From a virus (taxonomy: Duplodnaviria > Caudoviricetes), in the IMG/VR virus record IMGVR_UViG_3300025889_000163, positions 1 to 53,175 of that record: DNA of 53,175 nt; one strand, written 5' to 3'. The notes below the pieces were generated by a model that searched no databases, was not told where the DNA came from, and worked only from the letters and a program-made list of their open reading frames with translations. The position numbers were made by a program, and so were the translations under genes. Below are positions 2,936 through 49,265 of the stretch, piece after piece. Position 1 is the stretch's first letter. Every line of letters starts with the position of its first letter.

Positions 2936-3246
2936 CTCGACCAATTGTATCATTCGTCATGTTATTCATATTTGGATTAGCATGGTTCCCCGCACGATTG
3001 GTATCTAATAAGAACAACTGTTGGTTTTGGTCATTTGAGCAGCGTATTCGTCATGGTGGGCATTTGAAATTTTATCCCAGTAAGACATGGCATGGGTATC
3101 ATATAACCTGGGTGGATGATCATGGCACTGAGTGGGAGTATCGTTTGACAGCATTAGATGATCCCTCATGGAGATCCCCTTGGTGGTACATCCCACTGTT
3201 CTTTGATGGGCGAGTACAGAAAAAGGTAAGCAAATCAAAGACTTAG
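2923..3246 (+). CDS. Hypothetical protein with N-terminal hydrophobic segment
   Basis: 107-aa ORF, GGAG RBS, overlaps the ybaN end; Trp-rich. Confidence 0.6.
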   Translation: MDQVTRPIVSFVMLFIFGLAWFPARLVSNKNNCWFWSFEQRIRHGGHLKFYPSKTWHGYHITWVDDHGTEWEYRLTALDDPSWRSPWWYIPLFFDGRVQKKVSKSKT

Positions 3247-5634: not shown

Positions 5635-5720
5635 GGAGGTGTAGGAAAATTGGTAACCCCATCGGACTGTAAATCCGACGCCGAATGGCATTGTTAGTTC
5701 AAGTCTAACCGCCTCCACCA
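5635..5720 (+). tRNA. tRNA-Tyr(GTA)
   Basis: Acceptor GGAGGTG/CGCCTCC, anticodon arm TCGGA-CTGTAAA-TCCGA, long variable arm, TTCAAGT T-loop, encoded CCA. Confidence 0.95.
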
Positions 5721-5724
5721 ATTT

Positions 5725-5801
5725 CGGGGCATAGCGCAGTCTGGTAGCGCATCTGCTTTGGGAGCAGAGGGTCGGGAGTTCGAATCTCTCTGCCCCGACC
5801 A
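5725..5801 (+). tRNA. tRNA-Pro(TGG)
   Basis: CGGGGCA/TGCCCCG acceptor, TCTGC-TTTGGGA-GCAGA anticodon arm, GTTCGAATC, encoded CCA. Confidence 0.97.
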
Positions 5802-31962: not shown

Positions 31963-34900
31963 ATGGCAACAGATCTAACCCAAGCAACACTGTCATCTAC
32001 TTACAAAGACGACTGGACAGAATCAGATAACTATCATCGAATTCTGTTTAATAGCGGACGTGCTTTGCAAGCAAGAGAATTAACGCAGGTTCAGACAATA
32101 ATCCAAGAAGAAATGGCAAGATTTGGAGGGCACGTATTTAAAGAAGGTGCTGCCGTTTCTCTTGGTGGCAATCACATTACAGCATTATATAATTTTGTTC
32201 GGGTTAATTCTGCTGATCTTTCTGGTGTTGCAGTTGGGGATGTTTATCAGGGGCAAACCAGCGGAGTTAAAGCAACTGTATTAGAAGTTCTTGATGCTGA
32301 TAATACTCTTTACATTGCATATATTGATGGCGATGGATCTTTAAATAAAACTTTTGATGTAAGCGAAAATATTATCGCTATTGTTGGAACTGGAGGAAAC
32401 TTTGTAACTGTAGGAACGAATGCTACAGGTTCTGGTGTTAAATTTACCGTCGGCGAAGGTGATTTTTTTGTTGCTGGTCATTTTGTACATGCGCAACAAC
32501 AATCATTAATCCTAGAGAAATATTCAAACACTGTTGATGCTGTTGTTGGATTTAAAGTTGAAGAGAAAATTATCACTGTAAACGATGACGAAGATTTATA
32601 TGATAATGCAGGAGATGTAGTCAATACTGCTAGTCCTGGCGCGGACCGACTTCAAATTAATCTAACTTTGATTGAGAAAAGTGATACTGTTTCTCAAGAT
32701 ATGTTTGTTTTTATTGCTAGGATCGAGAACGGCGAAATTGTAGAAGAAGTTAGTTTAGACAACTCTTATAACGAACTAGAAGAGCAATTAGCACAAAGAA
32801 CTAGAGAAGAATCCGGAAACTATATTGTTTCACCTTTTAATATCTCTTACCAAGAACATGATGCAGATGCATCAAAATTAGAATTACATGTTGATGGTGG
32901 ATTGGCATATGTTAATGGCCACCGAGCAAGCACTGCCACAACTGTTTTGTTAGTACCAAAACCGCAAGATGTTGAACCAGTAACTGATGAATCTATCGGT
33001 ATTGCATATGGTAACTATTTCCAAATACAATATGATGCAACATTGAATCTTACTGATGGCGAAACTATGTTTTTCAATGCTGGAAGTTATCAACATATTC
33101 CAGTAAACATTTATATTGGAAACGATCAAAGAGGAACATGTATTCTTAGAGCAATTCAGCGCGATCTTTCTGACAGTACTCTTGCTCGCGCGTATGTCTA
33201 CAAAGTTGAAATGGATGCAGATTATTCTGTTTCTGCAGCAACTTCTTTAAGAACCGGAAACATTAATATTGCTATTGCTGGAACTAGTGGATTACTTGAT
33301 ACACGAATAAACGGATCATTGTTTAAATTTCCTTTAACAAGACCAAAACTTGTTGATGGTGGAACAATTACTAGAACGTGTATTCGTTCGGTTAGAATTA
33401 ATTCTGACGGCACAGGAGTTGCACAATTAGCAAATATCACTCCCGACGATTATGTTGATTGGGGACAGTGGATTATTTGGAACGATACGTCTAATACACT
33501 TGAAACTGGGTGGAGTTATAATCCTGCCACATATGAAATTAGTGGATTGACTGTCAGCCAATCTCATGTACTTTTATATTTTGTTCAAGAATCAAGTACA
33601 AACACTAAGTCGCGTCCAAAATCGTTGACGCAAACAACTGTTACTAGCGGATTGACAACTGTAGGAGAATTTAAATATCTCCCGTTGGGTCAATATGACA
33701 TTTATGAGATAGATTCTGTCCGATTAGGTACGAGCGCTGGTGAACCAGCAGATGCTGTATTCAGATTAGATAACGGACAAAGGGATAATTATTACACCGA
33801 AGGAAGATTAATTCTAAATGACGGGTACACTTGGACTGGTAATGTTTATACCAAGTTTAAATATTTTGCTAGAAACAGTGTTACTTCAGACGATGCTTTC
33901 TATAGTGTTTCTTCTTACAGCGGTCAAATTGATTATAAAGATATTCCGACGCACAAACTTTCTGATGGAACATTAATCAATCTACGCGATTATTTAGATT
34001 TTCGTCCAGATGTTCCTTTGGCTAGCAATACGCCAACCAACGAATTTGGTCAACCAAGAATCGGTTCTAATGTAAGTTTTAATACAGAATATTATTTGCC
34101 AAGAGCAGATAAAATTTTAGTTGACGAAAATGGTGGTGTTTCAGTTCTGTTGGGTCAGCAAGCGCAAGATCCACAATACAAAAAGACTCCAGACAATTCT
34201 TTAGATTTGTATAATGTGTTAATGAATGCAAATACTTTAGATGCAACAGATCTTAAAATTTCTCCAGTTGAGCATAAAAGATATACGATGGCAGATATTG
34301 CCAAACTTGAAGCAAAACTAGACGCACTCGCAGAATCTACAAGTTTAAGTTTATTAGAGCTTGATGCTAAGATTGATTCGTTGCATGATTCTGATGGGAA
34401 TGTCAGAGAAGAAGTAGGTATTATTGTAGATGATGGATCAGATCAAAATTTATCTGATACAAACAGTTCAGATTATTGTGCTTCAGTTGACCCAGATTCT
34501 CAACTCTTTCGTCCGTGTTTTGATGAGAACAACATAAGATTGATTTATGTAGAGAATGACCTGACTGATGCATTTACTACTGCAAACTCTTCTAAGAATG
34601 TTGTGTTAAAGGGCGATAATGTTTATTTGGATTATGAAGAATCCTCTTGGATCACACAAACAGATGCGTCAGAAGCAGTTAAAGTAAATCCATATGGTAT
34701 GGTTGACAACGTTGGTTGTATGGAACTTTCTCCATCAAGCGACGAATGGAAAGCTGGATGGAATGGGTTAAGATTGCTAGGAAATTCAAATCGCCTTGAC
34801 GTTAAATGGGCTTGGTTGTGGAATAGCTGGCAATGGAACTGGATTGGAAGATTGCAGGATGGCGTATTCGTTGATCCTGATCTAGATCTTTATGAAAGGG

Positions 34901-37359
34901 GATACGGTGTTTATGGAAGGGGCGGATTGTTCTCAAACATAAAGTATCTTTCTGATATGGGGTTATATCCAAGAAAGATTAGAGGCGCATATGTCAACAG
35001 AATAATGGCATCAGCAACTTTACGCAGAATTATTGGTAATCGTGTTGTTGATGCTGCGCTTCTTCCCTGGATTCGCTCTAGAAAAATTTATTTTAAGATT
35101 ATGGGTTTAAAACCCAACACTCTTCACAAAGCATATTTTGATGGAGTTGACGTTACTAATTTCTGTAGGACAGAAACATTTTTGAGATATGCTGCCACAA
35201 CTAATGATGATGGCAATTTGTATACTAATGTTACTGTAACAGACGGACATCCTCAAGGCGCTCTTCCTCTTACATCAAACGATAAAGGGGAATTATCTGG
35301 TTCTTTCTTTATCCCAAGTACAAGACCAAGATACGTTGTTGGACCATATGGTGTTACGACAGGAGAAATTGTTGCTGATGGTTCATTAAGGTTCCGAGCA
35401 GGGATTAAAGAATTTAAAGTCTTGGATATAGCAGAAAATAACTGGAGTGCAGCAGGTAGTAAAGCAGCAGCATATTATTCTGTTCAAGGTGCCATGCCGA
35501 TTAAACAGCAAACAATTTTGTCGACAAGGTTGTTTTGGAAAGTCCATCCATATGATTATTCTAGGGGACCAAACGTTTGGAATTATCATCAAATTCGTGA
35601 TGAAGTTGATAATGTTCCAGCAGGATATGTGCAATATCTGGAACCTCATGAACAGGGACTTTGGGGAGCTGCTACTACAGCTGTTTCGCCAGGATCATAC
35701 AGCGGAGAAATGGGAAATATTATTTACGACTATGTGAATGTTAATCAATTATTGTATTCGGGTGTAAATGTATTACCTTCATATTATCCGCAAAAACCTC
35801 TTGCACAATCGTTTTTTGTAGATAATCCGTTCGGCGTTATACTAACAAATATTAAATTATATTTTAAAACAAGACCTGATCCTAACGAAAAACCACTTCC
35901 GGTCAGTGTGCAAATTCGACCAATGAAAGGAAATGTTCCAGACTCCTTAGAAATTGTTCCCGGATCTTGTTCTTTTGTTAATGCAGCAGATGTTAATGTT
36001 TCTAGCGATGCAAGTTTAGCAACTACATTTGAATTTGAAGAACCCGTATTTTTGAATCCATATACAAAATATGCAATATGTGTTCAGTCACAATCTACGG
36101 AATATGAAGTGTTTACTGCTACATTTAATCAATATATTGTTGGCGGCGGCGGTAGAAAAGTGACTAAGAGTCATTTAGGTGATATGTTCTTCCCGCAAAC
36201 GGGATATGCATACAAACCAGCAGTCGGCAGAGATTTGACATATCAAATTACCAGAGCAAAATTCTCGCCAAAAGATGCTAATGGAAATAGAAATTCTGGT
36301 GTTGCTGGCGGACATAATGGAAGTTTGATTCTAAGAAACGCAGAAATTCCTGATAGATTGCTCGGGCAAAATCCATTAAGCGTAACTCAAGGGTCTTCTA
36401 CAGTTTATGTTAAACATCCTTGTCATGGTTTGAATATTGGTGATTATGTTACTATATCTGGGGCAGTTGCTACTGGTGGGATCAATGCAGTAAATCTCAA
36501 TTTAACCAACACGCTTGTTACTAATGCAGACGTTCATGGATTTACTTACACTGCTGGAAGTTCAGCAACTTCAACTACTTTGGGCGGAGGTTCTTCTATA
36601 ATTACCTCTAGAAATATCCAATATGATGTTATAATGCCTTACATTGAAACTGCTGTCCCAGCATTAACTTCTGTAGATTTTAGTGCTAAATTAATCAAAG
36701 GGAAATCTTTTGGTAATACAGAATCTTACAGTAAGTATGACGAGGACCAAACGTTCACAAGAGTTAATCCGTTTGTAAATACTTCTTTTGACGAACCAAG
36801 ACTTCTGGCAAATAGATATCAAGAAACACAATCTATTTCTAGTCACAGATCAGCATACTTTAAAGTTGATTTGAAGAGTGCAAACAATTATGTTTCTCCA
36901 ATTGTTGACTTGCAGCGTTCTTCTTTAATTTTAGTCACAAACTGTATTGACGATTCAGATGGACGTTCTCTTGTAGGTAACAGCGAACTTTCACCATACG
37001 GTGGCGCTTCACCATCAAGGCATATAGTTACGCCTGTTTCAACAGCAATTCCTGCTGTAGGATTCTCGGCAAAAGTTAAATATATATGTCCAGCATATTC
37101 AGATTTTAGTGTTTATGGTAGGACATCGAATGCTGGTGAGAATATTGCTGACCAACCATGGTTTTTAATTGAACCGCAACAACCTTTGCAGAAAGGATAT
37201 TATGGTTCTGGTTGGAAAGAGGCTGAATTTTTAGCTGGTGGATTGGGCGGAACTTTAGATGCGTTTACTCAAGCGCAACTAAAATTTGTTATGCACACTT
37301 CAAACACGGTTTGGGTGCCTTTGATAAAAGATTTGAAATGGAAATTCCTAGCAACTTAA
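31963..37359 (+). CDS. Large virion structural protein (DUF4815/VrlC-like)
   Basis: YHRILFNSGRALQARELTQVQTI, PGADRLQI, RTREESGNY, LDNGQRDNYY, DYLDFRP, KRYTMADI, PLAQSF. Confidence 0.85.
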   Translation: MATDLTQATLSSTYKDDWTESDNYHRILFNSGRALQARELTQVQTIIQEEMARFGGHVFKEGAAVSLGGNHITALYNFVRVNSADLSGVAVGDVYQGQTSGVKATVLEVLDADNTLYIAYIDGDGSLNKTFDVSENIIAIVGTGGNFVTVGTNATGSGVKFTVGEGDFFVAGHFVHAQQQSLILEKYSNTVDAVVGFKVEEKIITVNDDEDLYDNAGDVVNTASPGADRLQINLTLIEKSDTVSQDMFVFIARIENGEIVEEVSLDNSYNELEEQLAQRTREESGNYIVSPFNISYQEHDADASKLELHVDGGLAYVNGHRASTATTVLLVPKPQDVEPVTDESIGIAYGNYFQIQYDATLNLTDGETMFFNAGSYQHIPVNIYIGNDQRGTCILRAIQRDLSDSTLARAYVYKVEMDADYSVSAATSLRTGNINIAIAGTSGLLDTRINGSLFKFPLTRPKLVDGGTITRTCIRSVRINSDGTGVAQLANITPDDYVDWGQWIIWNDTSNTLETGWSYNPATYEISGLTVSQSHVLLYFVQESSTNTKSRPKSLTQTTVTSGLTTVGEFKYLPLGQYDIYEIDSVRLGTSAGEPADAVFRLDNGQRDNYYTEGRLILNDGYTWTGNVYTKFKYFARNSVTSDDAFYSVSSYSGQIDYKDIPTHKLSDGTLINLRDYLDFRPDVPLASNTPTNEFGQPRIGSNVSFNTEYYLPRADKILVDENGGVSVLLGQQAQDPQYKKTPDNSLDLYNVLMNANTLDATDLKISPVEHKRYTMADIAKLEAKLDALAESTSLSLLELDAKIDSLHDSDGNVREEVGIIVDDGSDQNLSDTNSSDYCASVDPDSQLFRPCFDENNIRLIYVENDLTDAFTTANSSKNVVLKGDNVYLDYEESSWITQTDASEAVKVNPYGMVDNVGCMELSPSSDEWKAGWNGLRLLGNSNRLDVKWAWLWNSWQWNWIGRLQDGVFVDPDLDLYERGYGVYGRGGLFSNIKYLSDMGLYPRKIRGAYVNRIMASATLRRIIGNRVVDAALLPWIRSRKIYFKIMGLKPNTLHKAYFDGVDVTNFCRTETFLRYAATTNDDGNLYTNVTVTDGHPQGALPLTSNDKGELSGSFFIPSTRPRYVVGPYGVTTGEIVADGSLRFRAGIKEFKVLDIAENNWSAAGSKAAAYYSVQGAMPIKQQTILSTRLFWKVHPYDYSRGPNVWNYHQIRDEVDNVPAGYVQYLEPHEQGLWGAATTAVSPGSYSGEMGNIIYDYVNVNQLLYSGVNVLPSYYPQKPLAQSFFVDNPFGVILTNIKLYFKTRPDPNEKPLPVSVQIRPMKGNVPDSLEIVPGSCSFVNAADVNVSSDASLATTFEFEEPVFLNPYTKYAICVQSQSTEYEVFTATFNQYIVGGGGRKVTKSHLGDMFFPQTGYAYKPAVGRDLTYQITRAKFSPKDANGNRNSGVAGGHNGSLILRNAEIPDRLLGQNPLSVTQGSSTVYVKHPCHGLNIGDYVTISGAVATGGINAVNLNLTNTLVTNADVHGFTYTAGSSATSTTLGGGSSIITSRNIQYDVIMPYIETAVPALTSVDFSAKLIKGKSFGNTESYSKYDEDQTFTRVNPFVNTSFDEPRLLANRYQETQSISSHRSAYFKVDLKSANNYVSPIVDLQRSSLILVTNCIDDSDGRSLVGNSELSPYGGASPSRHIVTPVSTAIPAVGFSAKVKYICPAYSDFSVYGRTSNAGENIADQPWFLIEPQQPLQKGYYGSGWKEAEFLAGGLGGTLDAFTQAQLKFVMHTSNTVWVPLIKDLKWKFLAT

Positions 37360-38399: not shown

Positions 38400-41300
38400 A
38401 TGATGTCTTCACGTCCATTAAAACAATTCGGTTCTGGTAATTTACGAGAATTAACTCTCACAGACGAAGCATATCTTGCCTACAGAACAGGGATTCAACT
38501 TGGTCAATTTGCCACTGATGATGTGGGCGCTTTGTCCACAAATAATTCGTACACGTTGGTTGGCGAATATGTCGATACATATTATTCGTCCACAGGACCA
38601 ATTAATACCAGAACATATGCATTAACTGCTACAGCATATGCCCAATTAGATACAGGTTCAAGCGTTTGGACTCTTGATTGGGAAACTACCCCTGCTCAAA
38701 TACCAGCAACTTTGCAAGTTGGTGACATAATTGAACTTACAATGGGAATTGAGGCAACTGTTGATTTTCCGAATGACGAAATTGAGTCTGCTGATTTAAC
38801 ACCATCTTGGACTCTAGACGGGGTATCTCAATCGGGTTTAAGAGTTGTTGATATTACTGTTACTTCTGAAGCAGGACATAATCATTCTGTTACTGCTAGG
38901 TCTGTCTTTTGGAGTCTTAGTTTAGACACTGGGTTATACCAAGCAAAATGGACTTTAGAAGTACAACAGGAAGGAACTTTGGTATTGACTGGATTGGCAC
39001 GAGTCGCTGACCAAGGAAACAGTCCACCCCAACTCTTAGACACCGCTTCCTTTGGATCTTCAACTGTCGGCAATAATATTGGTGTTATTGAAGTCAGTGG
39101 TAATGCTACATTAAATGAATCAGTAGATTTGGGTAACGTTGAAGTTGGGTCTGTATTACATGTAATTGTAAATGGCGATCAACCAACTTACTATAATTCG
39201 CCTTTATCTGGCGGAAGTGGATATACAATAACCCCCGAAACCTGGATCGGACCAGAATTTTATGTTACTATAACTGCAACAGGGGCGAATTATATATTTT
39301 TTGCTGATTCTCAAGGAGACGATTTTTTCCAGCTTAGTTGGACAGGAATTTCTAGTACAAGCAGCGGTGCTACTCTAAACGCTAACCCAACTCGTTTGTA
39401 TCAAAATTTGTCAGGTGTTGCTTCTCAAAGATCTGAACCTAATTGGCGCGGATTTGTTAAATGGGATGGTTCAATACAAAATCCTGGCGTCAAGGAAATG
39501 AATGATACAGAACTTGATGTTCTTATTCTTCGCCTCCTTAAAGCAGTTATGAAAAATGAATATCCTGGCGTTTTTAGACTAGCAGCAACTTCGCCAGGTT
39601 CTGATTGGACTCCATTTTTATCCAACATATTTACTGATACCAGATCTGACGGATACAGTCAAAATTATTCAATTTACATAAGAACTGTAGGGACAGCGCC
39701 AACAAAAATAAATCCGATGATTGTTGAGCGCGATAATAACAATGTTTTTGCTGGATTAAAGGCTGCTAATGATAGTATAATGTCAGTAACCCTTGGTCAA
39801 AGGGCAAAAGAAGTGATCAAGAGTTCAGGAATTGGAACCTATCAGTTACGTTCTTCAATTCAAGGTCCGCCAACCGAAGATGGTGTTTGGGTTCCTAGAG
39901 GTGTTGCTATAGACACTAGAAACGAAGGCGAATATGGTGGGGAAGAAGCAGCATATATTAAAGAATACACTGGAGATTATTCTAAAGATTATAGTCATAT
40001 TTCAACTGAAGCATTTACTGGAGATTACAATAAAACTTTTACGGGTGATTATACTACCGATTATTCTTTTGACTATGCTAGAACTTCGCAACAAGATTTT
40101 ACTATAATTTCCGCTGAAGATTTTACTGGTGATTATCTTGGTGACTATTCTCGTTTAAGTGAAACTGATTACACCCATGTTTCTTTAGAAGATTTTAGTG
40201 GCGATTATCTGAACGAATTTACGGGTGATTATACTGCAGATTATTCCCAAGATTATGCTAGAACTTCACAAGAAGATTTTACTCATGTTTCTGCTGAAGG
40301 ATTTGCTGGTGAATATGTTAAAAATTATTTGAGACAATCTATAGCTGATTTTACTCATGTTTCATCAGAAGAATATACTGGCGATTATATTGGCGATTAC
40401 ACTCATATAAGCGATGTAAATTACCAGCGTGTTTCCCTTGAAAATTTTACTGGCGATTATACTGGCGACTATTCTAAAAACTTCCAGCGTGACAGCAGCA
40501 TCGATTATCAAAGAGTAAGTACAGAAACATTTACTGGGGACTACACTACAGAGTATTCATTTGACTACACCAGACAAAGCGATGTAGATTATACTCATAT
40601 TTCAGCAGAAGATTTTACTGGTGATTATACTAATAACTATACAAGAAATTATCTCAGACAAAGCGATATAAATTATTCTCACCTTTCTAATCAAGTATTT
40701 ACTGGCAATTATACTGGCGACTACACAGTCGATTATACTCATTTAAGTGATGTAATCTATAATCGCATTTCTGCCGAAAATTTTACTGGTGATTATACTG
40801 GCGATTATACAGTTAATTATGCTAGAGATACTCCAATAAATTATCAGCGAGTTTCTGCAGAAAATTTTACGGGCGATTATAGTGGTGATTATACAAAAAA
40901 TTATGCACGCCAAAGCGCAGTTGGATATTCTCGCACTTCTGCAGAATCATTTAGTGGTGATTATAGCAAAGAATATACTCTTGCATATTTAAGGCAAAGT
41001 GACATTGATTATACTCGTCAATCTACAGAAGCATTTACTGGCGATTACACTACAGATTATGTTTTTGATTATACCCATTTAAGTGATGTTGTATATACTC
41101 GCCAATCTACAGAAGCATTTACTGGTAATTATGTTGGAGATTATGTTTTTGATTTTACGCATTTAAGTGATGTTGATTACACTCGTCAATCAACAGCACA
41201 ATTTACTGGAGATTATACTGCGAATTATTCAAAAAATTATGTCAGGCAAAGCGATGTAAATTATACTCATCTTTCTACTCAAGATTTTGCAGGTGAATAT

Positions 41301-44300
41301 ACTGGCGACTACACAGTTAATTATGCTCGTACAAGTGCTGTCAATTATGCGAGACAAGAGACTGAAACATTTACTGGCGATTATACTCCTAATTACAGTA
41401 AAGATTTTAGTCATTTAAGTGATATAGAATATAGTAGAACTTCAACTGAACAATTTACTGGAGACTATACTCCTAATTACAGTAAAGATTTTAGTCATTT
41501 AAGTGATATAGAATATAGTAGAACTTCTGCACAGCAGTTTACTGGCGATTATACTCCTAATTATAGTAAAGATTTTAGTCATTTAAGTGATGTAGAATAT
41601 AGTAGAACTTCTGCACAGCAGTTTACTGGCGATTATACTCCTAATTATAGTAAAGATTTTAGTCATTTAAGCGCCATAGATTATAACAGAACTTCAACTG
41701 AACAATTTACTGGAGACTATACTCCTAATTACAGTAAAGATTTTAGTCATTTAAGCAACATAGATTATAGTAGAACTTCACTACAACAATTTACTGGTAA
41801 TTATACTCCTGATTATCTCAAAAATTATATACGTTCAAGCAATGTTGATTACACTCGCCAATCAACAGCAAATTTTACTGGAGATTATTCTCTTGAATAT
41901 CTTAAGAATTATGCTAGACTAAGCAATGTAAACTATGCTAGGGCGCCAGATGTAGAATATAGTAGAGATGTAACTCCAACAGAAATTGATATTTCTTTAA
42001 GCATCCCTGCGGGTAGTTTTGAAAGTTTAGGAAATCTAGCAAACGGAACTATAATAAATGTAGACGTAGACTCATTCTATGGAGGCATTTATCTTAATCA
42101 ACCGCTCACCAACCAGGGCAATTCTACAATTGATGCATATTATTTGAATCCATATACAATCACGGTAGGATCTGGTTACGCCCTATTCTATTGGAGCGAT
42201 AGTAATCCTGGCGATTTTGCTGCTATAGAATTTACTGGTGTTCAAGGTGGCGAACAATCGGCTTTTACTAGAACTTCTGCGCAGACATTTACTGGTAACT
42301 ATACTCGTACTTCTGGATTTAATTTTCTAGGAGATTTTACAGTTAATTATGCTAGAGATGATTTAAACAATTTTACTGGTAACTATACTGCTAATTATTC
42401 TAAAAACTTTCAAAGAGCGCCGTTGACCAACTATATTAGAGCCAGTGTAACCACATATACTGGTAACTATACTGCTAATTATTCTAAAAACTTTGCTAGA
42501 GCAAATGAAGTTAATTATGCTAGAGATGATTTAAACAACTTTACTGGTGAATATACTGCGAATTATTCTAAAAACTTTGCTAGAGCGACTCTAGTTAATT
42601 ATGCTAGAAACAATATAGTCATATATAGTGGTGAATATACTGCTAATTATACTAAAAACTTTGCTAGAGCGAATCAAGTTAATTATGCTAGAGATGATTT
42701 AAACAACTTTACTGGTGAATATACTGCTAATTATACTAAAAACTTTGCTAGAGCAAATCAAGTTAATTATATTAGAAATGATTTAAACCAATTTACTGGT
42801 AATTATACTCCGGATTATATTAAAAACTTTGGTAGAGCGACTCAAGTTAATTATGCCAGGACCAGCGGTGTTTATTATGCAGGAGATTTTACCAAGAACT
42901 ACAGCAGGGTAGATTCTTACATTGGGGTTGAAACTTTTAATGCGACAAGTTCTCCGTGGGCGGTGCTTGGGTCCGATACTACAACTACTATTGATGGCGC
43001 TGAACAAAGAGATATTATAAACGTAACTTTACCTGCTTTGTCTCCAGCAACTACATCTACGCAAGGAGCTCATACTGGAACGATCTCTGTTGTTAAAAAT
43101 GCTGGTGAGACTAGTTATAGGGTCACCATTGGAGCAGGTCACACAGGAACCTGGCGAGCATTGTTTTCGTGTTCTTATGCACAGGGCAAGTCGATTATAA
43201 CTCGATTATCGGCAGTTGGTGGGTCAGTTATTGCAGGTGACTATGCTGGCGATTTTTCTAGAACAACGTTGTTTTCGAAAAACTTTACCAGAAGCAATCT
43301 AGTCAATTTTGCTGGAGATTATACCAAAAACTTTGCTGGCGATTATACTAAAGAATTTACTCGTGTTCCTACATTTAATAGGATATCAGGAGTATTCTAT
43401 GCTGGAGATTTTACTAAGAACTTTGCTGGCGATTTTAGTAAAGATTACACTCGTGTTCCAACGTTCAATAGGGTTTCTGGTGTTCAATATGCTGGGGATT
43501 TTACTAAAAACTTTGCTGGCGATTTTAGTAAAGATTACACTCGTGTTCCTACATTTAATAGGATATCATTAATATTCTATGAAGGCAATTTTTCTAAGAA
43601 CTTTGCTGGTGATTTCACTATAGATTATACTCGTGTTCCAACGTTCAATAGGGTTTCTGGTGTTCAATATGCTGGTGATTTTACTAAAAACTTTGCTGGT
43701 GATTACACTATAGATTATACTCGTGTTCCTACATTTAATAGACAATCCAATATAGTCTATATTGGAAACTATTCTAAGAACTTTGCTGGTGATTACACTA
43801 TAGATTACACTCGTGTTCCAACGTTCAATAGGGTTTCTGGTGTTCAATATGCTGGTGATTATAGTAAGAATTTTCAACGTCAGGATACACCGCAATATAC
43901 TGGAAACTATTCAAGACAAATTACGCTTCAATATACTGGAGATTATGTAGTAGTTTATGTTGGCGCATACATTAAAAACTTTGCTGGTGATTATACTAAA
44001 GGATTTATAGGTGATTATACTGTAGATTATCTGCAAAATTATGCTAGAACAGATGCAGAGCAGTTTACTGGTAATTATCCTGATGGATTTACAGGTGATT
44101 ATACTAAAGAATATACTCGTGTTCCAACGTTCAATAGGGTTTCTGGGGAAAACTTTACTGGAACTTATCCGGATACTTTCACTGGCGATTATACTATAGA
44201 CTATACTCGCGCTACAAATTATGCTAGGATATCCGCAGAGCAGTTTACTGGAACTTATCCAGATCAGTTTACTGGCGATTATACTATAGACTATACTCGC

Positions 44301-46916
44301 GCTACAAATTATGCTAGAATTTCGACTGAACAGTTTACTGGAACTTATCCGGACACTTTCACTGGTGATTATACCATAGATTATACTCGCGCCACAAATT
44401 ATGCTAGAATTTCAACTGAACAGTTTACTGGAACTTATCCAGATACTTTCACTGGCGATTATACCATAGATTATACTCGCGCTACAAATTATGCTAGGAT
44501 ATCCGCAGAGCAGTTTACTGGAACTTATCCAGATACTTTCACTGGCGATTATACCATAGATTATACTCGCGCTACAAATTATTCTCATCTTTCTGATCAA
44601 GTATTTTCTGGAGATTATACTAAAAACTTTACTGGCAATTATACTAAAGACTATACTCGTACATATTCAAGAATAGACAACGAAGAATTTACTGGAGATT
44701 ATACAAAAACGTTTGCTGGTGATTACACTACAAATTATGAGTTTAATTATGCACGTGTTTCTGGACAGCAATTTACTGGTAATTATCCAGACACTTTTAC
44801 TGGTGATTATGCTAAAGAATATACTTTAGATTATACTCATCTTTCTAATCAAGTATTTACTGGTAATTATCCAGACACTTTTACTGGCGATTTTGCTGCA
44901 GAATATGCGTTTGATTATTCTCATCTTTCTAATCAAGTATTTACTGGTAATTACCCAGATACTTATTCCGGCGATTATATTGGTGATTATATTTTTAATT
45001 ATACTCGCTCTTCTGGCGAAAGTTTTACTGGTGTTTATCCAGACACATTTAGCGGAGATTATTCTACAGATTATGTTTTTAATTATGCTAGAACTTCAAC
45101 TGAGCAATTTTCTGGAGATTACACTAAGCAGTTTACTGGAGATTATACTAAAGATTACACTCGTGTTTATTCTAGAACTTCAACTCAGCAATTTTCTGGA
45201 GAGTACACTAAAACATTTACTGGCGATTATAACAAAGACTACACTCGTTCATATGTAAGAAACTCAACAGAAACGTTTACTGGAGATTACACTAAAACAT
45301 ACAGCGGTAATTATACTGGAGATTATAGTAAAGACTATTCTAACATTTCTACGCAAGATTTTACTGGTAATTATTTGAGAGCATATTCTGGCGATTATAC
45401 TGCAGATTATGCCCAAGATTACAGTCATCTTTCAGATCAGGTTTTTACTGGAGACTACAATAAGCAGTTTACTGGTGATTACACTACAAATTATGAGTTT
45501 GATTATGCACGTGTTTCGGGAGAAAATTTTAGCGGAGACTACACTAAAACATTTACTGGCGATTATCTTGGAGATTATACTCATCTTTCTGTTGTAGATT
45601 ATACGGGCGATTATTCTAATTTGTTTACTGGTGATTATGAGAGAGGATATACTCGAAATGTCACTGGAACTTTTACTGGAGATTACAGCAATCAGTTTAG
45701 TGGTGATTATACTACAAATTATGAGTTTGATTATGCACGTGTTTCGGAACAAGAATTTTCTAGAGTTTCAGGAGAGCAATTCACTGGTAATTATATTAAC
45801 GAATATTCTGGCGATTATACTGGCGATTATACACACATTTCTACAGAAGATTTTACTGGTGATTACACTAATTTGTTTACTGGTGATTACACTGCAGAAT
45901 ATTCCTATGATTACACTAGAGAGAGCGATGTAATTTATACTCATGTTTCAGATCAAGAATTTACTGGAGATTATTCCAAAGATTTTAGTAGAGTGGATCA
46001 AAATCTTTATATTTCTGAATATGTAAACTCAGGAGTTGGTACAGGAGTTGTTTACATAGAAACTTATACGCTCTATTGTAAAATTGATGATGCTCAAGAT
46101 AACGGAAACAACGTAGAGTTTAATGTGTGGGATTCTGCTCAACTGGCAATACAAAATGCTCCTCACGCTTATAGAGAAGATGGATATATAGAGTTTAGGG
46201 TAGGAACTACAACTCATTCGGTTGTTTATCTTGAAATTGATCATGTCACAACATCGAATGCAGATTTTACAACGAATGTTAGTAGCAGAATTCCTATAAC
46301 AGTAACGACTAACGAAGGATTTACTGGTCAAATACAGTTTAACGAAGATAATCTAACTGAAGGACCTGAAACTTTTTATGCAAGACTATACGATTCTTCT
46401 ACTGGCGGGACTGAGATAGCAACTGCTATTCTTGTAACTATACTAGATACTTCTTTAGATGCTCCAGATTATCCTGATGCAATTCTTACTGCGACGAATT
46501 TCGTAAAAGTTCTTGCAGATACGCCTTACACCGGAAACATACAATGCGGAATGAGATTTGAAACAAACGGCGATCTGGTTTGTGTTGGAGATGGAGATGC
46601 GTTGAGAATTTCCCCAACATCGTCAACTCCTGTAGACAACTGGTTACGAGAAATAGATAAAGCAAATGGAATTGGTGCAAATTATGAAATTAGCGTTACG
46701 CAAATTTCAGGAACTATTACTGGAACTACATCCGGATTCGTTACTTTAGGAACACAGAGAACAGTTTATGGACAAAGTATTCCTCACACCCAAGAAGATT
46801 TTGTAACTGACATATGCAATATTAAGATAAGAAAAGTTGGTGCTGGCGCAGTTTATGATGTTGATCAAAATGTTGAATTTGTTGTCAGTACTATTAGTGG
46901 AATTGGAAACGCTTGA
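38400..46916 (+). CDS. Giant repetitive virion fibre/adhesin-like protein (2838 aa)
   Basis: Late promoter; about 2000 aa of (F/Y)xG(D/N/E)Y and YxRxS/YxHxS repeats with 4-residue aromatic periodicity; inserted globular domains; Calx-beta-like domain near the C-terminus (EDNLTEGPETFYARL...VTILDTS). Confidence 0.8.
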   Translation: MMSSRPLKQFGSGNLRELTLTDEAYLAYRTGIQLGQFATDDVGALSTNNSYTLVGEYVDTYYSSTGPINTRTYALTATAYAQLDTGSSVWTLDWETTPAQIPATLQVGDIIELTMGIEATVDFPNDEIESADLTPSWTLDGVSQSGLRVVDITVTSEAGHNHSVTARSVFWSLSLDTGLYQAKWTLEVQQEGTLVLTGLARVADQGNSPPQLLDTASFGSSTVGNNIGVIEVSGNATLNESVDLGNVEVGSVLHVIVNGDQPTYYNSPLSGGSGYTITPETWIGPEFYVTITATGANYIFFADSQGDDFFQLSWTGISSTSSGATLNANPTRLYQNLSGVASQRSEPNWRGFVKWDGSIQNPGVKEMNDTELDVLILRLLKAVMKNEYPGVFRLAATSPGSDWTPFLSNIFTDTRSDGYSQNYSIYIRTVGTAPTKINPMIVERDNNNVFAGLKAANDSIMSVTLGQRAKEVIKSSGIGTYQLRSSIQGPPTEDGVWVPRGVAIDTRNEGEYGGEEAAYIKEYTGDYSKDYSHISTEAFTGDYNKTFTGDYTTDYSFDYARTSQQDFTIISAEDFTGDYLGDYSRLSETDYTHVSLEDFSGDYLNEFTGDYTADYSQDYARTSQEDFTHVSAEGFAGEYVKNYLRQSIADFTHVSSEEYTGDYIGDYTHISDVNYQRVSLENFTGDYTGDYSKNFQRDSSIDYQRVSTETFTGDYTTEYSFDYTRQSDVDYTHISAEDFTGDYTNNYTRNYLRQSDINYSHLSNQVFTGNYTGDYTVDYTHLSDVIYNRISAENFTGDYTGDYTVNYARDTPINYQRVSAENFTGDYSGDYTKNYARQSAVGYSRTSAESFSGDYSKEYTLAYLRQSDIDYTRQSTEAFTGDYTTDYVFDYTHLSDVVYTRQSTEAFTGNYVGDYVFDFTHLSDVDYTRQSTAQFTGDYTANYSKNYVRQSDVNYTHLSTQDFAGEYTGDYTVNYARTSAVNYARQETETFTGDYTPNYSKDFSHLSDIEYSRTSTEQFTGDYTPNYSKDFSHLSDIEYSRTSAQQFTGDYTPNYSKDFSHLSDVEYSRTSAQQFTGDYTPNYSKDFSHLSAIDYNRTSTEQFTGDYTPNYSKDFSHLSNIDYSRTSLQQFTGNYTPDYLKNYIRSSNVDYTRQSTANFTGDYSLEYLKNYARLSNVNYARAPDVEYSRDVTPTEIDISLSIPAGSFESLGNLANGTIINVDVDSFYGGIYLNQPLTNQGNSTIDAYYLNPYTITVGSGYALFYWSDSNPGDFAAIEFTGVQGGEQSAFTRTSAQTFTGNYTRTSGFNFLGDFTVNYARDDLNNFTGNYTANYSKNFQRAPLTNYIRASVTTYTGNYTANYSKNFARANEVNYARDDLNNFTGEYTANYSKNFARATLVNYARNNIVIYSGEYTANYTKNFARANQVNYARDDLNNFTGEYTANYTKNFARANQVNYIRNDLNQFTGNYTPDYIKNFGRATQVNYARTSGVYYAGDFTKNYSRVDSYIGVETFNATSSPWAVLGSDTTTTIDGAEQRDIINVTLPALSPATTSTQGAHTGTISVVKNAGETSYRVTIGAGHTGTWRALFSCSYAQGKSIITRLSAVGGSVIAGDYAGDFSRTTLFSKNFTRSNLVNFAGDYTKNFAGDYTKEFTRVPTFNRISGVFYAGDFTKNFAGDFSKDYTRVPTFNRVSGVQYAGDFTKNFAGDFSKDYTRVPTFNRISLIFYEGNFSKNFAGDFTIDYTRVPTFNRVSGVQYAGDFTKNFAGDYTIDYTRVPTFNRQSNIVYIGNYSKNFAGDYTIDYTRVPTFNRVSGVQYAGDYSKNFQRQDTPQYTGNYSRQITLQYTGDYVVVYVGAYIKNFAGDYTKGFIGDYTVDYLQNYARTDAEQFTGNYPDGFTGDYTKEYTRVPTFNRVSGENFTGTYPDTFTGDYTIDYTRATNYARISAEQFTGTYPDQFTGDYTIDYTRATNYARISTEQFTGTYPDTFTGDYTIDYTRATNYARISTEQFTGTYPDTFTGDYTIDYTRATNYARISAEQFTGTYPDTFTGDYTIDYTRATNYSHLSDQVFSGDYTKNFTGNYTKDYTRTYSRIDNEEFTGDYTKTFAGDYTTNYEFNYARVSGQQFTGNYPDTFTGDYAKEYTLDYTHLSNQVFTGNYPDTFTGDFAAEYAFDYSHLSNQVFTGNYPDTYSGDYIGDYIFNYTRSSGESFTGVYPDTFSGDYSTDYVFNYARTSTEQFSGDYTKQFTGDYTKDYTRVYSRTSTQQFSGEYTKTFTGDYNKDYTRSYVRNSTETFTGDYTKTYSGNYTGDYSKDYSNISTQDFTGNYLRAYSGDYTADYAQDYSHLSDQVFTGDYNKQFTGDYTTNYEFDYARVSGENFSGDYTKTFTGDYLGDYTHLSVVDYTGDYSNLFTGDYERGYTRNVTGTFTGDYSNQFSGDYTTNYEFDYARVSEQEFSRVSGEQFTGNYINEYSGDYTGDYTHISTEDFTGDYTNLFTGDYTAEYSYDYTRESDVIYTHVSDQEFTGDYSKDFSRVDQNLYISEYVNSGVGTGVVYIETYTLYCKIDDAQDNGNNVEFNVWDSAQLAIQNAPHAYREDGYIEFRVGTTTHSVVYLEIDHVTTSNADFTTNVSSRIPITVTTNEGFTGQIQFNEDNLTEGPETFYARLYDSSTGGTEIATAILVTILDTSLDAPDYPDAILTATNFVKVLADTPYTGNIQCGMRFETNGDLVCVGDGDALRISPTSSTPVDNWLREIDKANGIGANYEISVTQISGTITGTTSGFVTLGTQRTVYGQSIPHTQEDFVTDICNIKIRKVGAGAVYDVDQNVEFVVSTISGIGNA
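41370..41789 (+). repeat. 5 x 84-nt coding tandem repeat
   Basis: FTGDYTPNYSKDFSHLSDIEYSRTSTEQ x5. Confidence 0.92.
42372..42875 (+). repeat. 6 x 84-nt coding tandem repeat
   Basis: FTGEYTANYSKNFARANQVNYARDDLNN-type x6. Confidence 0.9.
43308..43847 (+). repeat. 6 x 90-nt coding tandem repeat
   Basis: YAGDFTKNFAGDYTIDYTRVPTFNRVSGVQ-type x6. Confidence 0.9.
44154..44603 (+). repeat. 5 x 90-nt coding tandem repeat
   Basis: FTGTYPDTFTGDYTIDYTRATNYARISAEQ x5. Confidence 0.92.
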
Positions 46917-48866: not shown

Positions 48867-49265
48867 ATGGCGCATTACGAAGATCTAACCATAGATCAGG
48901 GTTCAGACGTAGCAATAGAACTTCATCTAATCAATCAAGATAAAAGTAAGAAAAATTTAAACAATTATTCTGTTAATGCTTGGTTGAAACCTAATTATGC
49001 AGCAGATTCTACTGAATCAATTCGATTTACTTCTATCATTTCAGATCCTGATAGCGACGGAATTATCAATCTTTCGCTAACCAATTTACAAACTTCAGCA
49101 TTAAGCACCAAAAAACGTTATGTTTATGATGTCGAAATTTCTTACATCAGCGAATCTGATGGTTCGGGAAATTTGACACACATCGTGGAAAGAATACTTG
49201 AAGGAATGGTTAACGTCACTCCTTCCGTCACAAAACAAGTTTTACCACCGACGGTTACTCCATAA
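48867..49265 (+). CDS. Conserved virion structural/adaptor protein
   Basis: DLTIDQGSD...GIINLSLT..QTSAL...RYVYDVEI...RILEG.V.VTPSVT pattern of marine T4-like phages. Confidence 0.75.
   Translation: MAHYEDLTIDQGSDVAIELHLINQDKSKKNLNNYSVNAWLKPNYAADSTESIRFTSIISDPDSDGIINLSLTNLQTSALSTKKRYVYDVEISYISESDGSGNLTHIVERILEGMVNVTPSVTKQVLPPTVTP

Follow-up and report, generated by a model that had tools for sequence, protein, structure and literature searches.

A giant fibre-like protein of a T4-like aquatic phage with mirror-ordered repeat arms and a predicted clasp between its ends

Results

Genomic context and layout of the ORF

The window analysed here is a stretch of 53,175 nucleotides from a metagenomic virus record (IMGVR_UViG_3300025889_000163), and the whole region of interest within it is held by a single ORF:

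38400..46916, + strand, giant fibre ORF, 2838 aa

The ORF is set in a T4-like baseplate and fibre gene module of the phage contig, with gp5-, gp6-, gp8-, gp25-, gp53- and gp48/54-like genes upstream and a fibre-assembly-like ORF and a fibre-like ("short tail fiber"-like) ORF downstream, a location in the tail/baseplate module that is expected of a conventional tail fibre. Megablast of the ORF against the phage collection gave no match, the exact protein sequence is absent from the protein collection searched, and the whole protein retrieved no fibre family from Pfam or the PHROGs, its sole hit being 20 residues to phrog_26816 (unknown function). The parts of the encoded protein are listed below, with repeat units counted from the predicted clasp between its two ends that is described further on:

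38400..38624, + strand, head repeat R1 (aa 1-75), family-conserved and homologous to R2 and R3 (hhalign on family slices)
38625..39359, + strand, variable head insertion of small beta domains (aa ~76-320), missing in most family members
39432..39929, + strand, head repeat R2 (aa ~345-432), then R3 together with the exit strand (aa ~437-510)
39966..40445, + strand, N arm, proximal irregular units (aa 523-682; lengths 16, 36, 24, 36, 24, 24)
40446..41369, + strand, N arm, 11 regular 28-aa units (aa 683-990)
41370..41789, + strand, outer N array (aa 991-1130) of five 28-aa units, numbers 18-22 counting from the clasp
41958..42287, + strand, insert domain in the N arm (aa 1187-1296), a non-repeat stretch
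42288..42911, + strand, inner N array, 28-aa units (aa 1297-1504)
42912..43229, + strand, centre domain (aa 1505-1610), proposed apex, non-repeat, between the inner arrays
43308..43847, + strand, inner C array, 6 x 30 aa (aa 1637-1816)
43848..44063, + strand, C-arm stretch of irregular units (aa 1817-1888), numbers 24-26 counting from the clasp
44064..44603, + strand, outer C array, 6 x 30 aa (aa 1889-2068), its 5 near-identical copies (1919-2068) being numbers 18-22 counting from the clasp
44604..45527, + strand, C arm, 11 regular 28-aa units (aa 2069-2376)
45528..46043, + strand, C arm, proximal irregular units (aa 2377-2548; lengths 24, 24, 36, 24, 36, 28)
46032..46097, + strand, cap strand (aa 2545-2566) with the invariant ETYTLY (2554-2559)
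46098..46913, + strand, extra C-terminal domains (aa 2567-2838), common only to the family proteins P0003 and P0004

Repeat arrays and their assembly

The repeat region is continuous (aa ~523-2548), with a basic period of 4 residues and about 32 units before the centre and about 33 after it; the arrays are only its most recent parts. The initial annotation had described four nested arrays around a non-repeat centre, and Tandem Repeats Finder recovered all four in place: outer N at 41369-41815 (period 84, 5.3 copies, 89% matches), inner N at 42341-42856 (period 84, 6.1 copies, 79%, with a better fit of 84% at period 168 and 3.1 copies), inner C at 43310-43874 (period 90, 6.3 copies, 75%, or period 180, 3.1 copies, 87%) and outer C at 44154-44582 (period 90, 4.8 copies, 91%). 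The copy numbers of 5, 6, 6 and 5 that the initial annotation assigned stand for the near-identical units of the outer arrays, five in each (82-95% DNA identity unit by unit in the N arm, 80-97% in the C arm), and for the six units of the inner C array, which show alternating identities. However, the outer C array has a sixth unit at 66-70%, and the inner N array is looser, having a tight core of four units that are 81-93% alike flanked by two edge units at only 62-76%, so that "6" is one among several defensible counts.

As described initially, the units of the two sides differ in make-up: those on the N side carry one xGxY and two R/H-x-S segments and those on the C side two xGxY and one R-x-S, and over the whole arms the counts are 43 xGxY and 50 R/H-x-S/T (N) and 66 xGxY and 33 R/H-x-S/T (C). 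The deviant copies thought to mirror each other are indeed present at mirrored unit junctions (..NNIVI followed by YSGEY and ..ASVTT by YTGNY in the N arm; ..SLIF by YEGNF and ..SNIV by YIGNY in the C arm), but both inner arrays have a two-unit super-period, and matching parity alone would therefore arise about 1 time in 2 by chance.

The copy numbers in the four arrays rest on one metagenome assembly. Among the pieces listed for the best-holding run of independent Logan contigs none spans any of the four arrays: a 26.9-kb contig ends at 41411, a 26.4-kb contig begins at 45718 and the listed pieces between them avoid the arrays, while the Logan read depth over the arrays is a sum over pieces fitting several places and cannot count copies. 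Part of what we describe could thus be an artefact of assembly, with the copy number wrong in at least one near-identical array and the 5/6/6/5 pattern unreliable. The metagenomic origin of the record, the breaks of the Logan contigs at all four arrays and the similar array totals (447-565 nt), such as a short-read resolution limit could produce, would all fit this explanation, which we nevertheless regard as rather unlikely: the units differ by 3-20%, enough for many assemblers, the mirror order seen at the protein level cannot come from an assembly artefact, and the unit-length mirror and the 488/488 equality reported in the next section lie outside the arrays and hence do not depend on their copy numbers.

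Mirror register of the two arms

Counted from the clasp, both arms run through units of 36, 24, 36, 24 and 24 aa, then eleven of 28 aa, and then the two 5-copy arrays. The boundaries at 539, 575, 599, 635, 659 and 683 in the N arm map onto 2521, 2485, 2461, 2425, 2401 and 2377 in the C arm by i+j=3060. Residue 991, the first of the N array, and residue 2068, the last of the C array, each lie 488 residues from the contact pair 503/2556, and 991 + 2068 = 3059, which is the clasp register. Within the irregular zone the best of 300 registers was 3056/3057 in three of five windows, and in the other two this register came second to its own +60 image.

When the 17 proximal C-arm units were shuffled, 0 of 5000 orders reached the observed complement score of 116 (mean 30, maximum 109), and with shuffling limited to the irregular zone the observed score was reached once in 5000. 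The genealogies of the units are likewise correlated between the arms: a Mantel test over units 2-24 gave r 0.70 (reached by 0/5000 permutations), and r was 0.50 without the arrays (0/5000), 0.30 for the eleven 28-aa units only (84/5000) and -0.05 in a control with the C order reversed. The mirror pattern exceeds chance once the register is anchored at the shaft ends, and the earlier suggestion that the two arms co-vary is supported by the exact unit-length mirror and the correlated genealogies. The pairing of aromatic residues over glycine that accompanied this suggestion was not adopted: as a contact directly across the strands it is strongest in registers displaced by 3 residues from the one that the unit boundaries set.

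Past the outer arrays the arms drift, with 28-aa units opposite 30-aa units and a 110-aa domain in one arm only, and by the centre they differ in length by about 54 residues. This insert domain (1187-1296) lies by unit count opposite the irregular C-arm stretch 1817-1888 and resembles head residues 230-324 (blastp, 25% identity over 96 aa, E 9e-6 in a tiny database).

A family with conserved ends

In all, 252 proteins (clusters at 50% identity) match aa 1-520 at E<=1e-3, 76 of them at <=1e-30, with the match covering query residues 1-70 and 320-510 only. These proteins range from 318 to 3347 aa, and only the ~250-aa N-terminal head and the C-terminal ETYTLY strand are conserved across them; invariant columns are confined to these parts and include in the head G479, P491, G495, W497, G501 and T506. 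The pattern E[TS]Y[TS][LIV][YF] was found in 94 of the 153 family proteins examined, mostly starting exactly 10 aa from the C-terminus, and most family members end 10 aa after the start of the motif. The family is unannotated and, going by these matches, may be widespread in aquatic phages. It has no counterpart in Pfam, PHROG or PDB by sequence searches: Pfam gave no family above threshold for P0080, P0073, P0067 or window aa 1-520, and phmmer of the whole protein and of the family profile against all PDB chains returned no fibre and no match to a solved chain. With aa 1-517 as query, tblastn found Phage C48C1 as its only match and a scan of viral contigs yielded no confirmed relative; the ESM Atlas queried with aa 1-560 gave no usable match. 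A description of the family was not found in the literature on cyanophage tail fibres, the gp37 needle, fold-back fibres and C48C1, which does not prove its absence.

Outside the conserved ends the members differ widely. The extra C-terminal domains (aa 2567-2838) have no Pfam or PHROG match, tblastn with the C-terminal domain found no match, and no homologs of the centre domain were detected among the long or short proteins searched, so that the window's own arrays are without close relatives for comparison. The short members P0080 (476 aa, of which 216 form the shaft) and P0073 (616 aa) have a non-repeat mid-shaft loop of about 36-43 aa; by a crude measure, only 27 of 77 members have their longest non-repeat stretch in the central part of the shaft (0.4-0.6). 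The Phage C48C1 homolog has a beads-on-a-string look, with at least six non-repeat stretches.

The head and a predicted clasp

Profile comparison by hhalign reveals that the head is an internal triplication (probabilities: R2-R3 96.3%, E 2e-9; R1-R3 87.8%; R1-R2 77.3%). It thereby has three homologous segments in one chain, the arrangement from which, as PMC2881412 describes, the MABP-type beta-prism derives its internal 3-fold symmetry, and this triplication hints at a single-chain protein. The solved folds nearest to the head model are MABP-type beta-prisms at Z 5.1-7.1 by VIA-align, all below 8 and hence in a range that the tool classes as common: 8b6v_A (Z 7.1, rmsd 3.8, 120 aligned), 2qp2_A (Z 6.7, rmsd 3.6, 116 aligned), 3tow_A (Z 5.6, rmsd 3.8, 113 aligned) and 6sb1_A (Z 5.1, rmsd 5.7, 120 aligned). 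Foldseek of the head model against PDB and BFVD gave nothing at E<=1e-3. T4 gp11 (Z 2.7, 48 aligned) and a Klebsiella phage baseplate chain (Z 2.5) were set aside as fold matches too weak to use.

A complex predicted between window aa 1-550 and aa 2505-2690 reached an ipSAE of 0.89, the best of three controls scoring 0.00; this mark is reached by 58 of 80 solved complexes and by 2 of 110 mismatched pairs, counts that apply only approximately to a prediction made with our own alignment. For the partner chain that alignment has only 3 rows; the runs share at least 45% of contacts and the pLDDT of the partner is at least 63. In the predicted interface residues 2545-2566 contact 57-62, 381-394, 411-425 and 477-510, so that the cap strand constitutes the entire confident partner interface with the head, and its docking site adjoins the exit of the shaft from the head (aa 493-510). 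No complex similar to this clasp was found among solved structures. An AF2 model of the short relative P0080 (30-row alignment) gave a head with pLDDT >90 (pTM 0.60) and strands at 240-266 and 446-474, with pLDDT 94-97 for 461-476 and a confidence that declines symmetrically away from 240 and 474. We therefore predict from these models that the C-terminal ETYTLY strand docks onto the N-terminal head.

This bears directly on the reading of the protein as a conventional fibre, that is, an N-terminally attached parallel homotrimer with a trimeric repeat shaft bearing bead-like inserted domains and with residues 2567-2838 as its distal receptor-binding tip, the mirror order being a by-product of tandem duplication and the predicted clasp being wrong. 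Tail fibres are typically trimeric, as stated in PMC12143355, the gene does sit among baseplate and fibre genes, the non-repeat stretches of the Phage C48C1 homolog would suit such a fibre, and AF2 shows only local structure in the inner arms. Yet in place of a variable distal receptor-binding C-terminus the family has an invariant ETYTLY that is predicted to be head-bound, and conservation of 10 C-terminal residues in proteins whose middle is hypervariable reverses the usual pattern of a variable C-terminal tip. The modelled clasp (0.89 against 0.00 in controls, and cap pLDDT of 94-97 in AF2) likewise argues against a trimeric fibre, three homologous head segments are already present in one chain, and direct duplication cannot give a reversed unit order. 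Taken with the size-matched mirrored indels of three homolog pairs presented below, these observations make a conventional fibre quite unlikely in our estimate.

Matched indels and family-wide tests

The initial annotation had proposed that indels should be matched in both arms of relatives, and three pairs display this. Between P0080 and P0073 the difference is +66 aa in each of the two arms. P0070 compared with P0091 shows +16, -5 and +40 in one arm and +42, -6 and +16 in the other. Between P0003 and P0004, at mirrored positions, +28 faces +18+10, -36 faces -40 and +10 faces +10, and their cumulative profiles are equal at 5 of 7 steps to 350 aa, the exceptions being d=150 and d=200, where they differ by 10 and 14 aa. 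The matched indels are limited to the proximal ~350 aa of each arm, and against random gap placement mirrored indels at p<=0.05 occur in only 6 of 48 homolog pairs; in the well-aligned pair P0088/P0066 (62% identity) the indels are not mirrored (p 0.47). This proximal restriction, along with the unequal arms around the central domain in the two nearest homologs (818/315 and 853/323 aa), does not bear out the claim that the central domain always forms the tip.

Across the family, the mirror complement of segment types was best in the offset window predicted from the clasp in 20 of 78 members (4.6 expected), and in 15 of 78 after removal of the first 60 aa; when the C half was reversed as a control, the number was 5 of 78. 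The signal is absent in most members, 58 of the 78 not being ranked first, and with two segment labels P0003 and P0004 rank 8 and 6 of 17. An earlier mirror statistic (mean r -0.125 mirrored, +0.008 direct, n=76) was discarded as confounded, because shafts tend to begin Arg/Ser-rich and finish Gly/aromatic-rich. The length of the first Arg/Ser block is weakly related to that of the last Gly/aromatic block (Spearman 0.23-0.32), and the best offsets for charge complementarity are scattered across the family in a comparison of low power.

Structure of the arms

Single-sequence AF2 of aa 1297-1830 left the inner arms unpaired and folded them into local hairpins or solenoid-like coils (mean pLDDT 60, pTM 0.39): the inner N array as alternating strands of 9-10 and 13-15 aa (pLDDT 64-76), the inner C array as three short strands per unit (pLDDT peaks 86-88) and the centre domain at pLDDT 25-39. 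Fold matches of the arm model are weak and all to beta-solenoids (PL6 lyases, ice-binding proteins, curli CsgA), and Foldseek of this model against PDB and BFVD gave nothing at E<=1e-3. The flat two-stranded ribbon of ~300 nm envisaged at first is not borne out by this local folding, itself of modest confidence, and the shaft might either extend as a ribbon to ~300 nm at most or form a much shorter cross-beta or solenoid ladder of some 15-30 nm.

Such models also suit a protein in which only the clasp is real: the shaft would be a huge insertion in a head hairpin, and its arms local beta-solenoids or meanders that need no mutual contact and form a short rod at about 0.5-1 nm per unit. The hairpins and coils of the aa 1297-1830 model, whose 30-aa units reach pLDDT 88, and the weak solenoid matches agree with this, as does the fact that 28-aa and 30-aa units cannot hold residue register. 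Independent arms, however, would not need the same order of unit lengths, would have no need for mirrored sub-unit indels like -5/-6 and +16/+16, and would not be expected to have correlated unit genealogies, and we accordingly judge this arrangement unlikely.

Another alternative is antiparallel pairing between chains, in which at least two copies would be arranged head to tail, so that the N arm of each pairs with another copy's C arm and every cap docks on the head of the neighbouring copy. Mirror symmetry and matched indels fit pairing within a chain or antiparallel pairing between chains equally, and the complex prediction did use two separate chains; but AF2 closes the hairpin inside one chain of P0080, the mid-shaft non-repeat loop of P0080 and P0073 suits a turn, and attachment heads at both ends of a fibre would presumably fit a baseplate poorly, which renders this the least probable of the arrangements considered.

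Discussion

A proposed fold-back fibre

In our view the product of the ORF is probably a fold-back fibre, associated with the baseplate of a T4-like aquatic phage. Computation has established the starting points, namely the conservation of both ends, the mirrored order of the units, the correlation of their genealogies and, in relatives, indels that match; together with the predicted clasp these support the initial idea of a chain that runs out and back. Some 250 conserved N-terminal residues would form a pseudo-threefold, beta-prism-like head of three homologous alpha/beta segments, which the chain would leave at aa ~493-510 to run outward through ~32 repeat units. The centre domain (aa 1505-1610) would then serve as the distal, host-facing tip, after which the chain would return through ~33 units and the ETYTLY strand (aa 2545-2566) would re-insert in the head beside the exit strand. 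The two arms may be in contact along their whole length, paired unit for unit, with Gly/aromatic-rich '[FY]xG[DN]' stretches facing Arg/His-x-Ser/Thr of the other arm; a length change in one arm would in that case need a counterpart at the mirrored site in its partner. The extra C-terminal domains (2567-2838) would lie at the base and not at the tip, and the fibre would be monomeric.

Relation to known systems

The tip of T4 gp37 offers a close parallel. As set out in PMC6957217, the gp37 chain goes to the tip and returns, so that the collar domain D10 is made from two distant segments (residues 811-881 and 1010-1026) around the needle domain D11 (882-1009), and glycine of one strand packs on phenylalanine of another (G921-F970). 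The window protein would share the out-and-return chain and the two-segment proximal domain, which are supported here by prediction and mirror covariation. The gp37 needle consists of six antiparallel strands. Its arms have ~64 residues each as against ~1000 here, and gp37 is a homotrimer with histidine-bound iron, whereas the window shaft (aa 511-2545) has 0 HxH and 23 HxS; the window protein has a single-chain triplicated head and would fold back over its whole length, while in gp37 only a terminal module does so. No sequence relation to gp37 was detected (PDB chains by phmmer and family profile; Pfam).

In SMC, Rad50 and MukB proteins the N- and C-terminal segments form one head, antiparallel arms lead to a mid-gene apex and the lengths of the arms must match, a logic that by analogy may also underlie the matched indels in the family of the window protein. 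The arms of those proteins are alpha-helical coiled coils and their ATPase head acts on DNA; the window protein differs in that its modelled shaft has strands only, its head has no ATPase signature (no Pfam hit) and its setting is a phage baseplate. The MABP-type (type I) beta-prisms, such as the C-terminal domain of Photorhabdus plu1415 and MVB12B, share the triplication of the window head, but here each segment of the model contains helices and one hairpin would be extended by ~2000 residues. The T4-type trimeric fibres (gp12, gp34-gp37), like the fibres related to them in aquatic myophages, occupy the same place by baseplate wedge genes and are, like the window protein, very long and repetitive with small inserted domains; in contrast to them, the window protein is variable in the middle and has a conserved C-terminal strand that is predicted to return to the N-terminal domain. 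The AF2 models give the window protein one hairpin or one three-strand coil per 28-30-aa unit, a strand pattern that, at modest confidence, would suit a single-chain beta-solenoid rod such as those of curli CsgA, ice-binding proteins and autotransporter passengers, but solenoids offer no reason for a mirrored unit order or for matched indels in two distant halves.

Implications

The family may, with a likelihood that we put somewhat short of even, represent an undescribed class of fibre, widespread in aquatic phages: a single chain whose shaft is the drawn-out hairpin of a pseudo-threefold beta-prism head, with both termini together at the baseplate, a host-binding tip encoded mid-gene and a length tuned by paired mirrored duplications, in effect a beta-strand counterpart of the SMC arms. 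A fold-back built this way would be an unusual fibre architecture, and a single chain with its own pseudo-threefold head would be a new mode of attachment to a baseplate that otherwise uses trimers. In tailed phages the search for host-range determinants usually centres on the C-terminal end of the fibre gene; if the family folds back, the specificity determinant would lie mid-gene and both conserved ends would be structural, which would change the annotation and reading of such genes in metagenomes, where 252 clusters without a Pfam, PHROG or PDB counterpart amount to a large blind spot. The family would further provide a natural covariation experiment, in which length could change only by two coordinated events about 1000 codons apart, and the +66/+66 relatives show that coordinated changes of length do happen.

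Architecture of the fibre protein and its repeat arrays

The finding lies wholly within a giant fibre ORF, whose product is laid out as follows:

Window 38400..46916, + strand: giant fibre ORF, 2838 aa
aa 1-~515: non-repeat N-terminus
aa ~523-2548: repeat region with a 4-residue base period and an aromatic in each fourth place, units mostly of 28 or 30 aa
aa 1187-1296: first non-repeat insert in the repeat region
aa 1505-1610: second non-repeat insert, the proposed apex
aa 2549-2838: non-repeat C-terminus

The initial annotation described four arrays, two on the N side (outer 5x28 aa, inner 6x28 aa) and two on the C side (inner 6x30 aa, outer 5x30 aa), and their presence, periods and copy numbers are borne out by Tandem Repeats Finder and by unit-by-unit identity, except that in the inner N-side array only four units form a tight core. 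As also described there, N-side units differ from C-side units in composition, and the odd junctions are placed in mirrored positions. In the best-matching run, independent Logan contigs are interrupted at each of the four arrays (a 26.9-kb contig stops at 41411 and a 26.4-kb contig begins at 45718), and among the pieces listed between these two positions none covers any array; hence, the array copy numbers stand on the original assembly alone. The first insert (window 41958-42287) is similar to a sub-domain within the head insertion (aa 230-324, window 39087-39371; blastp 25% identity over 96 aa), and judging from this sequence likeness one small domain seems to be reused along the protein.

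A family with two conserved ends

Searching a 1.84-billion-protein library with aa 1-520 recovered 252 clusters at E<=1e-3, the match covering query residues 1-70 and 320-510, while the stretch between them is an insertion peculiar to the window protein and a few others. Pfam, PHROGs and PDB gave no meaningful match for this family, the sole weak ones being one sub-threshold Pfam and 20 residues to phrog_26816 (a PHROG of unknown function), and we found no description of it in the literature searched. Family proteins range from 318 to 3347 aa in total length. Two alignments, of 30 and 40 members, have invariant columns only in the N-terminal head and in the ETYTLY motif of a C-terminal strand, the cap; an ETYTLY-like motif occurs in 94 of the 153 proteins examined and mostly begins exactly 10 residues from the C-terminus ('ETYTLYVRIA'). 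The intervening shaft is hypervariable, yet always rich in period-4 aromatic repeats. Unlike the usual phage fibre, which shows the reverse pattern, it is here the C-terminal strand that is conserved and the middle that varies. The window protein and its nearest homologs, P0003 and P0004 (identities of 43% and 38% across aa 1-520), are atypical in having 282-422 extra residues beyond the motif; P0005 and P0007 also extend beyond the cap, by about 25 residues, and a second ETYTLY-like match far upstream in P0009 looks like chance. The syntenic homolog of Phage C48C1 (OQ984149.1, L001:11674-21717; 3347 aa) ends exactly at its ETYTLYVRVA cap and contains at least six non-repeat stretches, together with an exact ~74-aa tandem duplication, noted by eye in the translation, which may be genuine or may stem from assembly.

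When slices of the family alignment were compared as profiles, the head resolved into three homologous segments (R2-R3 96.3%, E 2e-9; R1-R3 87.8%; R1-R2 77.3%). An AF2 model of P0080, a 476-aa member, computed with a 30-row alignment (pTM 0.60), has a head with pLDDT above 90 and a last stretch of 16 residues with pLDDT 94-97. Two long strands, one leaving the head at 240-266 and the other ending in the cap at 446-474, lose confidence symmetrically away from residues 240 and 474 towards a low-confidence middle that has no defined fold in the model. The solved folds nearest to this model, at middling scores, are MABP-type beta-prisms (Z scores: 8b6v_A 7.1, 2qp2_A 6.7, 3tow_A 5.6, 6sb1_A 5.1), for which an internal three-fold symmetry built from three homologous segments has been described (PMC2881412), likewise the number of segments in the present head. 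A chain with its own three-fold head would not need to trimerise.

When aa 1-550 and aa 2505-2690 of the window protein were modelled as a complex, the ipSAE score was 0.89, versus 0.00 for the best of 3 controls. Of 80 solved complexes in a benchmark 58 reach this mark, as do 2 of 110 mismatched pairs; these counts are only approximate here because our own alignment was used for the prediction. At least 45% of contacts agreed between runs, partner pLDDT was at least 63, and the confident interface on the partner was exactly the cap, 2545-2566. The cap is predicted to contact the head at 57-62, 381-394, 411-425, 477-487 and 493-510, thereby touching equivalent 'xxDT' strands in all three segments (57-62, 411-419, 493-510). 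The lowest-error pairs between the cap and the exit strand, where the shaft leaves the head, are 497 with 2559-2562, 500-501 with 2558 and 503 with 2556, with i+j of about 3056-3059; pairs with strand 477-487 have lower sums (e.g. 483 with 2558). Searches of PDB chains found no solved complex resembling the head-cap pair, and it is therefore unlikely that the prediction passed from the model's memory. The complex model supports rather than demonstrates binding of the cap to the head, a predicted docking that we term the clasp.

Mirror symmetry of the two arms

Counted outward from the clasp, unit lengths are identical in the proposed outbound (N) and returning (C) arms (36, 24, 36, 24, 24), and i+j=3060 holds for all six pairs of boundaries:

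N-arm unit boundaries: aa 539, 575, 599, 635, 659, 683
C-arm unit boundaries, backwards from the cap: aa 2521, 2485, 2461, 2425, 2401, 2377

These irregular units are followed in each arm by eleven 28-aa units and then by the near-identical arrays: the start of the N array at 991 and the end of the C array at 2068 (sum 3059) each lie 488 residues from the contact pair 503/2556, and both outer arrays comprise units 18-22. Past N unit 24 comes the 110-aa insert domain, facing an irregular stretch of the C arm (units 24-26), beyond which the inner arrays occupy N units 26-31 and C units 27-32, with about 32 units in the N arm and 33 in the C arm overall. As the C arm, read N-to-C, is the reverse of the N arm, it is not the product of direct duplication.

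Sliding 84-aa windows across the irregular zone placed register 3056/3057 (the constant i+j of facing residues) best of 300 in three of five cases and second in the other two, behind only its own +60 image. When the 17 proximal C-arm units were shuffled, none of 5000 arrangements reached the observed complement score of 116 (mean 30, sd 22, max 109); shuffling in the irregular zone alone reached the observed score once in 5000. Register 3057 brings 51 opposite-charge against 9 like-charge facings over aa 520-990, the best of seven possible unit phases. We further compared the DNA-identity matrix of N-arm units with that of their mirror partners (5000 permutations), obtaining r 0.70 for units 2-24 and 0.50 without the arrays, neither reached by any permutation, and r 0.30 for the eleven 28-aa units alone (reached by 84); a control with reversed C order gave r -0.05. 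Such correlated matrices imply that the arms have a common duplication history at mirrored places, matching what follows from the earlier proposal that changes in length require paired duplications. The pattern initially described is real, and stronger than could be seen at first.

Across the family, using '[FY]xG[DN]' tetrads and R/K/H-x-S/T triplets as the two segment labels, the mirror complement peaked within the offset window predicted from the clasp in 20 of 78 members (4.6 expected), in 15 of 78 on removal of the first 60 residues and in 5 of 78 with the C half reversed. Matched indels in relatives, a check proposed in the initial annotation, were found in the best-aligned pairs and more weakly in a systematic run, where 6 of 48 pairs (>=50% identity) did better than randomly placed gaps at p<=0.05; p values for the five pairs with identity >=0.62 were 0.018, 0.056, 0.466, 0.000 and 0.04. 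Compared with P0080, P0073 is longer by 66 aa in each arm, and P0091 differs from P0070 by +16, -5, +40 in one arm and +42, -6, +16 in the other. In P0003/P0004, +28 at 600 lies opposite +18 and +10 at 1714 and 1730, -36 at 702 opposite -40 at 1612, and +10 at 804 opposite +10 at 1504; the cumulative profiles coincide at five of seven steps to 350 residues from the clasp, are 10 and 14 aa apart at d=150 and 200, and diverge beyond 350. Pairing in these two proteins seems limited to the proximal ~350 residues per arm. Their 'central domain' lies off mid-shaft (arms of 818/315 and 853/323 aa), so the apex is not always a discrete central domain.

Geometry of the shaft and comparison with known fibres

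Among the possible readings of these data, an out-and-back topology whose arms co-vary has the best support and is, we think, probably correct. Single-sequence AF2 of the inner arms (aa 1297-1830; mean pLDDT 60) went against pairing from arm to arm: strands paired locally, those of the 28-aa units being 9-10 and 13-15 aa long and each 30-aa unit having three short ones, and the weak fold matches were beta-solenoids. The mirror data are compatible with several geometries. An extended two-stranded ribbon, up to ~300 nm long as initially proposed, would fit, as would two stacked ladders or a two-start solenoid with each N unit on its C partner, of some 15-30 nm; an extended ribbon spans about 0.33 nm per residue, and the per-residue and per-unit lengths are textbook values. 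Matched indels smaller than a unit (-5/-6, +16/+16) favour pairing at the level of residues, and 28-aa units paired with 30-aa ones argue for slack. Antiparallel pairing between chains is a possible alternative, likewise compatible with the mirror symmetry. For the out-and-back topology, the nearest known counterpart is the tip of T4 gp37, in which residues 811-881 and 1010-1026 form the D10 collar around the D11 needle (882-1009), folding back over ~64 residues per arm in a trimer with iron sites (PMC6957217). The predicted fold-back in the window fibre is ~1000 residues per arm. Unlike the iron-site context of gp37, its shaft lacks the HxH motif, and comparison of the fibre with PDB chains found no sequence relationship to gp37. 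SMC proteins have antiparallel arms; by analogy the fibre arms would follow a similar logic, with strands.

Genomic setting and habitat

The window is a 53-kb metagenomic virus record, in which baseplate genes of T4 type (for hub, tube and wedge proteins, with gp25-, gp6- and gp8-like genes) lie 5' of the fibre ORF, and small ORFs, a fibre-assembly protein homolog and a fibre-like ORF lie 3' of it:

Window 31963-37359: DUF4815 / phrog_358 protein, 1798 aa, just upstream of the fibre ORF
Window 48867-49265: 132-aa ORF matching the L-shaped tail fibre assembly family
Window 50515-53175, open at the window end: second large fibre-like ORF, matching 'short tail fiber' and 'tail fiber' PHROGs

In a gp6 comparison, Phage C48C1 (Kyanoviridae), Pelagibacter phage HTVC008M and Methylophilales phage Melnitz come out as the nearest named phages, ahead of Synechococcus myophages; C48C1 has a comparable large ORF in the position of the DUF4815 / phrog_358 protein. 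A gp5-like cell-puncturing protein is apparently split over three ORFs (window 23266-27496):

ORF 1: N-terminal hub/lysozyme-family part, phrog_430
ORF 2: 614 aa, Amidase_2 domain
ORF 3: 510 aa, gp5 C-terminal beta-helix repeats

Runs containing the stretch are labelled as freshwater or estuary metagenomes. Gene pieces at least 99% identical to window 39900-46100 occur in contigs from such runs of several studies (at most 361 nt among the matches listed for the three runs other than the best-matching one), and the phage population therefore seems widespread. Tyrosine makes up 12.0% of the fibre shaft versus 4.9% in 16 other + strand ORFs, and the fibre ORF uses 228 TAT and 49 TAC codons. The phage encodes tRNA-Tyr (GTA) and tRNA-Pro (TGG) at window 5635-5720 and 5725-5801, and the former may serve translation of the fibre gene.
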